From the UHGV virus genome UHGV-1783573: DNA of 11,149 nucleotides, one strand, 5' to 3'. This document shows positions 493-652 of this stretch, one piece after another; within the stretch, counting starts at the first letter, position 1, and every line of letters starts with the position of its first letter. Origin of the DNA: a virus. The notes under the pieces were generated by a model. That model was not told where the DNA came from. It saw nothing but the letters and a program-made list of their open reading frames with translations, and searched no databases. A program made the position numbers and the translations under genes.

Positions 493-530
493 GCACTCTG
501 CTTTTATTCCGATTAACTGTGGGTGGTTTG

Positions 531-561
531 TTGGATAGAGTGCTTTCCTTACTGTATATAT
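531..561 (+). promoter_or_regulatory. Candidate sigma70-type promoter upstream of the lysis operon (possible late-promoter analogue)
   Basis: TTGGAT at 531-536 followed 18-19 bp later by TATATA/ATATAT at 555-561, with a T-rich tract (573-592) between it and the holin RBS. By-eye motif match only. Confidence 0.25.
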
Positions 562-652
562 CGTTTCGCCCGTTTTTGCGGTTTTTTCTTTTCAAATCCC
601 TTTCATTTCTCAGTGTAAAACTACGCCATCCGTTATTTGCGGAGGTGAGGCT

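Follow-up and report, generated by a model that had tools for sequence, protein, structure and literature searches.

The promoter-like sequence ahead of a phage-21-type holin gene probably lies in the distal part of a Q-dependent late leader carrying a tRNA cassette

The lysis genes carried by the viral genome UHGV-1783573 raise the question of whether they are transcribed from a promoter of their own or depend on a Q antiterminator encoded upstream. The stretch of DNA analysed here, which extends over 11,149 nucleotides and is referred to below as the window, starts with a block of tRNA genes that is followed by a non-coding region and by the holin gene. The first-pass annotation had assigned to the lysis operon its own promoter-like element, a TTGGAT...TATATA pair at 531-561 accompanied by a T-rich tract, and had offered two alternatives for the lack of a Q gene in the window: either Q is located further upstream, with the tRNAs lying inside the late leader, or the late operon has been uncoupled from Q. 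In our analysis the observation was partly confirmed and the interpretation partly supported, and we consider it very probable that the region 500-652 constitutes the distal part of a standard lambdoid late-operon leader and not an autonomous promoter.

Both hexamers are present on the plus strand of the window sequence, TTGGAT at 531-536 and TATATA at 555-560, separated by 18 nt, and this much of the earlier claim stands. They match the sigma-70 consensus at three of six and four of six positions, respectively (7/12), and TATATA ends in A such that the near-invariant final T of the -10 element (the -7 T) is missing. By the same mismatch criterion, 331 equally good sites occur in the 11-kb window, 153 and 178 on the two strands, and a sigma-70 scan of positions 1-1400, for which only a modest 9/12 match was asked, yielded no promoter-like sites. 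An approximate position weight matrix (PWM), built from classical hexamer frequencies, was used to score 111,140 positions, and the pair was ranked 185th with 5.0 bits. On the same approximate scale lambda pR' ranked first in the lambda Q-S interval with 15.7 bits, while the pR' candidate and the tRNA promoter of relatives of the window (see below) scored 13.8 and 13.1 bits, respectively, and the tRNA promoter of phage Sp5 scored 11.3 bits. Moreover, in close variants of the sequence the putative -10 element becomes TAGATT, TAGATC or TCGATT, and it is unalignable in phage HK639. The TTGGAT-18-TATATA pair is a chance-level match, and an own promoter-like element of the lysis operon was not substantiated.

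The region fared no better as a late promoter. Segment 500-652 showed no similarity, in blastn searches with a word size of 7, to the pR' regions of the lambda, 82/434, 933W and Q21 types, yielding only chance matches of 8-11 nt with E values of at least 2.4. A pR'/qut assignment for 500-652 was rejected on these grounds and because the hexamers are weak and no Q gene adjoins them.

The T-rich tract, which spans 573-592, is also present as described, and it is probably the U-run of a small intrinsic terminator, not part of a promoter. Folding energies, and the terminator scan in relatives, define an intrinsic terminator-like hairpin with its U-run at 568-592 on the plus strand. In the window allele, T residues at positions 573, 582 and 583 leave a 4-bp stem (570-573/578-581) of -4.5 kcal/mol that is followed by U6CU4; 20 of 200 shuffled sequences fold as well, and the allele was not called by the terminator scan. 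Given the weak fold and the failure of the scan to detect it, the insulating capacity of this allele is doubtful. The relatives carry GCCCGC-UUUU-GCGGG(C/U), a 6-bp GC stem of -11.5 to -13.7 kcal/mol followed by U5CU4, which the scan does call; at the homologous place in relative L003 the call comprises GCCCGCTTTTGCGGGT plus TTTTCTTTTC, the latter lying directly 3' of GCCCGC-TTTT-GCGGG(C/T) in the relatives.

Polymorphism of the hairpin is confined to three stem positions, 573, 582 and 583, and gives rise to four common strengths of -4.5 (the window), -6.6, -11.5 and -13.7 kcal/mol. Among 80 IMG/VR contigs the alleles at these positions were CTT (28), CGC (25), CGT (24), TTT (2) and TGT (1). 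The TTT allele of the window is therefore the weakest and the rarest of the four common strengths; it is also found, in a normal context, in the finished genome HS13-1, which indicates that it is rare but real. Since the alleles differ greatly in strength and are located between a constitutive tRNA promoter and the holin gene, they could modulate the basal leakage of lysis-gene transcription. Terminator-like hairpins also occur 35-90 nt upstream of the holin ATG in the unrelated leaders L035/L040, L038/L043 and L053 (E2348/69), none was evident ahead of the holin ATG in the leaders L022/L023, and four terminators are annotated in the late leader of HK639.

The terminator is preceded by a structured segment. 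The non-coding stretch between tRNA-Gly and the holin gene covers 291 nt (362-652), and three hairpins are predicted in it on the plus strand: H1 at 366-415 (-22.5 kcal/mol), H2 at 419-494 (-26.3 kcal/mol, with a 14-bp outer stem) and H3 at 489-547 (-20.7 kcal/mol). The fold of the whole leader has a z-score of -3.9. Diverged copies of the trailer were found in phage HK639, at 77% identity, and in E. coli strains NCTC13148, FDAARGOS_1267, VL40 and DCE7, and covariation was assessed over a set of eight sequences from about three to four lineages. This set yielded ten compensatory pairs, compared with 3.4 ± 1.4 when columns were shuffled (0/500) and 0-3 for slid controls; three of the ten fall in H1, two in H2 and five in H3, of which four lie in the outer stem in HK639. 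Paired cells amount to 96.4% across the alignment, the loops of the three hairpins carry the invariant strings CUGCGAUGAUGGG, CCCGGAGUGAC and UUUUUGCAAAAUUGCUGUG, and many G-U pairs in the stems suggest that the RNA is read from the plus strand.

This folding bears directly on the promoter-like sequences. TTGGAT and the first nine bases of the spacer form the descending strand of H3 (530-545), and in HK639 the sequence AGAGT has changed to GAGGT together with partner changes in the 5' arm, with the result that the helix is kept while both hexamer candidates are destroyed. The second of these candidates, TTAACT-17-TAGAGT at 513-541, attains 10.8 bits in the approximate PWM, the maximum for the window and an unremarkable one among the 111,140 positions scored.

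It could still be argued that a weak sigma-70 promoter within the trailer, at 531-560 or at 513-541, maintains a low level of Q-independent transcription of the holin cassette. Both hexamer pairs exist, that at 513-541 is the top-scoring site, and with the weak terminator allele of the window transcripts initiated in the trailer could leak into the holin gene. However, neither site passes even the modest criteria of the sigma-70 scan, the changes in HK639 preserve H3 pairing and not the hexamers, and the TATATA of the first pair is not kept in near relatives. A transcript starting near 567 would, moreover, begin at the terminator hairpin itself, the entire trailer segment is missing from phages that share the holin but have other cargo, and a constitutive pinholin and SAR-endolysin cassette should presumably be counter-selected in a prophage. 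We therefore regard a functional promoter in the trailer as highly improbable, and the site at 531-560 was rejected as a sigma-70 promoter for its weak match at chance expectation, its poor conservation, and its position inside a covarying hairpin with a terminator-like hairpin directly after it.

The distribution of the hairpin segment shows to which unit it belongs. Positions 362-868 recur in phages and prophages at 97-100% identity, and about 10% of complete E. coli genomes (536 of 5,426) carry the trailer (362-600). Segment 362-615 always lies directly after tRNA-Gly or its remnant CGCTCCA, and in phages with the same holin but other cargo the upstream homology ends at about 616/607 or at about 642. 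The cargo ahead of the holin in those phages is an ileZ-argN-argO cassette, a methyltransferase gene, an Asn-Thr cassette or reverse-strand ORFs. The constant neighbour and the homology breakpoints together assign 362-615 to the tRNA cassette, as its trailer, and not to the holin unit; the part that accompanies the holin gene is limited to about 607/616-652, or to 642-652 in some phages. The hairpin element is preceded by what is left of the tRNA-Gly 3' end (…CGCTCCA), even where no intact tRNA-Gly is called, in HK639 (L052) at 2470-2491, in L153 and in L154 at 1485-1491; in NCTC13148 tRNA-Asn and this remnant are separated by an HNH endonuclease gene.

Whether the hairpins have a function of their own can be addressed tentatively. 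Searches of Rfam 15 with 355-660 assigned no family, the best scores being 12.8-15.3 bits against gathering scores of 38-70, and a covariance model of H1 and H2, applied to 55 loci that included the late leaders of lambda, 434, Sp5, E2348/69 and P22-like phages, found matches only in tRNA-Gly trailers. It is possible, although we would not put the chance high, that the segment 366-547 represents a functional RNA, so far uncharacterised, in lambdoid late leaders. One option is a stable 3'-trailer sRNA or sponge that is set free from the constitutive tRNA transcript; another is an RNA insulator which, together with the polymorphic terminator, sets the leakage from the tRNA promoter into the holin gene. 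The three-hairpin trailer should be seen as a modest lead and not as a result, its interest being that roughly a tenth of E. coli genomes have, in this leader, a structured RNA-like element that is unannotated.

The match to HK639 had also suggested a put-like antiterminator RNA. No similarity was noted, and the idea is disfavoured because the lysis genes would become constitutive if antitermination without Q took place downstream of a constitutive tRNA promoter. In the record ON470583 a 43-aa 'hypothetical protein' is annotated on the minus strand over the trailer and terminator (window 464-595); overlapping covarying hairpins as it does, this ORF is probably a spurious call.

Downstream of the terminator the leader is simple. 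The 5' leader of the holin gene (593-652) contains a small stem (630-632/640-642) abutting the Shine-Dalgarno sequence GGAGGTGAGG at 641-650, and the gene starts with ATG at 653. The description of the holin as strongly initiated was borne out; its dual-start motif MKSM provides starts at 653 (M1) and 662 (M4). The product, of 71 aa (653-868), is a class II holin of the phage 21 type (PF04971, 122.2 bits against a cut-off of 26), and it is followed on the same strand by genes assigned by Pfam to DUF1327/YdfR (873-1223), a lysozyme (1287-1820) and Rz (1817-2284). P22-like packaging and head genes lie downstream of Rz.

A module joint is located within Rz, at about 1818-2277. The left 2.3 kb matches lambdoid lysis modules of the S21 type, with 98.7% identity to EC19, and the right 9.3 kb matches P22-like prophages, the closest finished relative being 97.7% identical and carrying a GH24 endolysin along with a Q and a holin of the lambda type. 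No single database record was found that contains both halves of the joint, and no IMG/VR contig joins this lysis module to the P22-like head module. The joint may reflect either natural mosaicism or a second assembly joint.

The remaining question concerns Q. As the first-pass annotation had stated, no Q gene is present in the window: 11 Q-type proteins used as tblastn queries produced no match below E = 0.03, all matches being short, and the Pfam assignments of the window ORFs agree. The window starts at the tRNA-Thr repeat and would not itself decide whether Q is present upstream, and Q, pR' and the tRNA promoter of this phage are placed from relatives only.

In the relatives the evidence is consistent. 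A Q gene lies upstream of the tRNA block, at a distance of 0.5-2.4 kb, in all the finished relatives inspected, namely ON470583, PhiR47_1, EC19, F95, HS13-1, DCE7, VL40, FDAARGOS_1267, BS15R-A and NCTC13148. Among the 80 IMG/VR contigs a recognised Q was found in 65, where it ends 531-2392 nt upstream of the terminator hairpin; of the 15 others, 11 are truncated, and in two stx separates a putative Q from the trailer. The identical lysis cassette occurs behind three unrelated Q families (PF06323, PF06530 and PF03589), the commonest Q being a protein of 229 aa that is 77% identical to the Q of phage 82. Thus every informative relative agrees with the alternative in which Q lies further upstream and the tRNAs form part of the late leader.

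The elements between Q and the tRNAs could be seen directly in relatives with a Q of the phage 82 type. There, a pR' candidate (TTGCAA-17-TATATT) overlaps the Q stop codon and is followed by a -10-like GATATT/TATGTT element and then, about 60-80 nt on, by a strong hairpin-U terminator (tR'); the region aligns with that of phage 434, in which the terminator is annotated. pR' has been described as constitutively active but terminated at tR' (PMC7547250). A separate promoter, which was also seen behind other Q types, abuts the first tRNA downstream of tR'. It reads TTGCAA/TTGCAG/TTGAAG-17-TATTAT-cctGCGCCC in four upstream contexts, including that of the Stx2 phage Sp5, and its GC-rich discriminator, TATTATcctGCGCCC, resembles those of tRNA and rRNA promoters. 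It is located at 4808-4845 in L003 and at 1329-1365 in L051, and likewise upstream of the first tRNA in L002, L040 and L042, and it matches the transcription start site published for this promoter in Sp5 (PMC7547250). The order in the relatives is Q, pR', tR', tRNA promoter, tRNAs, trailer and terminator, and holin.

The left end of the window departs from this order. The tRNAs reported on the upstream side of the holin gene are indeed there, all on the plus strand: tRNA-Thr(UGU) at 2-77, tRNA-Tyr(GUA) at 86-170 and tRNA-Gly(UCC) at 287-361, the last two separated by a 116-nt spacer. The genes for tRNA-Thr and tRNA-Gly are 100% identical in the phage cassettes and in the host thrU and glyT, and in the phages they are only three or four bases apart. 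The tRNA-Tyr gene and spacer (86-286), in contrast, correspond to the host-type thrU-tyrU-glyT sequence. Positions 1-361 as a whole match the chromosomal thrU-tyrU-spacer-glyT operon at 99.7% identity, in Escherichia as in other enterobacteria, and the homology stops exactly at the CCA of glyT (switch at 361/362), after which the host continues with thrT.

None of the finished phages and prophages examined has the Tyr gene and spacer between Thr and Gly. The junction of tyrU spacer, glyT and trailer occurs in none of the 5,426 complete E. coli genomes, though 536 of them carry the trailer, and it is absent from IMG/VR viral contigs, none of the 80 containing Tyr or the spacer. It was found only in five metagenome contigs. 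In four of these the upstream sequence is chromosomal and includes the host thrU promoter; they derive from at least two host genera, since their upstream regions are either 97-99% or only 76-80% identical to Escherichia/Salmonella, yet in their phage parts they share about 98% identity. The fifth contig, L046 (515 kb), shares the exact Thr-Tyr-Gly-trailer arrangement of the window and has upstream of it the 3' end of Q, again 77% identical to the Q of phage 82, followed by pR', tR', the tRNA promoter, tRNA-Ile and tRNA-Lys.

These findings can be read in three ways. A true uncoupling from Q would have resulted if the phage tRNA-Gly had recombined with the host glyT, fusing the lysis cassette to thrU-tyrU-glyT and placing it behind the strong host thrU promoter with only the trailer as insulation. 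The near-identity of 1-361 to the host operon favours such a fusion, and so do the four contigs with chromosomal sequence upstream, and it is only this host-type tRNA block that speaks for uncoupling from Q. Against it stand the absence of the junction from the complete genomes and viral contigs, the presence of a phage Q upstream of the same block in L046, and the start of the window at the first base common to the host and phage copies, which is as expected of a contig ending at a repeat. Two host backgrounds attached to near-identical phage parts are, moreover, what recurrent misassembly at a perfectly conserved 75-nt repeat would produce, and a holin cassette behind the thrU promoter would presumably be hazardous. 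We consider real uncoupling very unlikely.

A slightly better, though still small, chance can be given to a genuine phage variant that gained the host tyrU and spacer between Thr and Gly by gene conversion while retaining Q upstream, in which case the window would have been cut off at a repeat common to phage and host. L046 holds Q, pR', tR', the tRNA promoter, Ile, Lys, Thr, Tyr, spacer, Gly, trailer and holin in one piece, and the identity of the phage Thr and Gly genes to thrU and glyT would supply homology on both sides. However, no finished genome or phage record shows this arrangement, and a Thr/Gly repeat bubble can be collapsed by short-read assemblers, so that L046 may carry the same artefact. 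Gene conversion would in any case change nothing about the dependence on Q.

The simplest reading is that host and prophage paths became joined at the identical tRNA genes during short-read assembly, and the junction between the host tRNA block and the phage trailer is probably an assembly chimera. The left 361 bases would then be host DNA, and neither a 'phage tRNA-Tyr' nor an absence of Q should be read from this contig. With Q present in the relatives, Q is to be expected beyond the left edge of the window.

The anatomy, conservation and covariation of the leader and the occurrence of Q in the relatives are direct observations; its transcriptional logic can be proposed by analogy with the established biology of lambda, phage 82 and the Stx phages and with the published Sp5 start site. 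Region 500-652 would comprise the 3' half of H3, the small intrinsic terminator (568-583, with a U-run to 592) and the 5' untranslated region of the holin gene with its Shine-Dalgarno sequence, and the tRNA cassette would resemble a moron, having been inserted downstream of tR' as a unit that comprises promoter, tRNAs, structured trailer and terminator. In the lysogen, transcripts from pR' would halt at tR' while those from the tRNA promoter would yield tRNAs and end in the trailer terminator (582-592), leaving the lysis genes silent. On induction, Q would load onto RNA polymerase at pR' and make it resistant to terminators, and the polymerase would then pass tR', the tRNA cassette and the trailer terminator to transcribe the genes for holin, endolysin, Rz and the structural proteins. 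If the lysis cassette has this usual Q-dependent wiring, it should be activated upon prophage induction, like its counterparts in lambda, 82 and the Stx phages.

Several components of the leader have counterparts in known systems. Stable RNAs derived from tRNA operons include the 3'ETS-leuZ sponge of E. coli and the species 1 and 2 RNAs encoded in the tRNA cluster of phage T4. Like these, the trailer is a conserved, structured RNA-like segment placed immediately after the last tRNA and bounded by the terminator of the operon; the sequences themselves are not similar, and the likeness is positional only. The PasA, PasC and PasD sRNAs of EPEC are likewise intergenic, encoded in lambdoid prophages beside the holin-lysozyme operon and equipped with a terminator hairpin (bioRxiv 10.64898/2026.05.13.724894). 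PasA, however, lies on the strand opposite to the lysis genes, and comparisons with PasA, PasA-long and PasD2 of E2348/69 gave a best E value of 0.03, inside the holin gene, and none better than 0.2 for 362-652. Identification of the trailer as a Pas sRNA was rejected on the basis of strand and the lack of similarity. On the minus strand of L035, in an ileZ-argN-argO-type leader upstream of the same holin, a strong terminator-like hairpin, GCCCGTATCCATATGCGGGC followed by T8, occurs at 5210-5229; its position recalls the antisense PasA and PasC sRNAs, and no similarity to PasA was seen there.

The holin is an ordinary member of its family. It shares with phage 21 S the Pfam family ('Bacteriophage P21 holin S'), the M1/M4 starts, the strong Shine-Dalgarno sequence and the stem beside it, and nothing notable sets it apart. 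Late control in the relatives corresponds to that of lambda, 82 and 21 in having Q, pR' over the Q stop codon, tR' and the lysis genes downstream in the same orientation; the window differs in containing no such element, 500-652 lying about 0.7 kb or more from the position of Q in the relatives.

The layout is the same as in the Stx phages 933W and Sp5; in these phages, the best-documented case, Q, pR', tR', a tRNA promoter, ileZ-argN-argO, a terminator, stx and the lysis genes follow one another. In Sp5 the tRNA promoter (TTGCAG-17-TATTAT-cctGCGCCC) adjoins the first tRNA, and the last tRNA is followed by a GC hairpin and U-run, GGCTCGCTTTTGCGGGCC-TTTTTT, with a terminator core, CGCTTTTGCGGG, like that of the window family. 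The differences are that the tRNA set of the relatives is Ile-Lys-Thr-Gly, that 180 nt with three hairpins intervene between the last tRNA and the terminator, and that stx genes are lacking here, with the holin gene directly after the terminator.

The cassette also has the properties of a moron, a term reportedly used by Hendrix and colleagues for extra promoter-gene-terminator units in lambdoid phages. The unit from tRNA promoter to terminator is present or absent as a whole among phages with identical flanking lysis genes, behind three Q families, the identical endolysin and holin being found behind two kinds of tRNA cassette, a methyltransferase gene or reverse-strand ORFs; it has its own promoter downstream of tR', as seen in the relatives only. 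It differs from a moron in that the cargo consists of tRNAs and a structured RNA and not of a protein gene. The architecture about which the question was posed is already known; it is the textbook form of a Q-dependent late leader in which cargo has been placed between tR' and the lysis genes.
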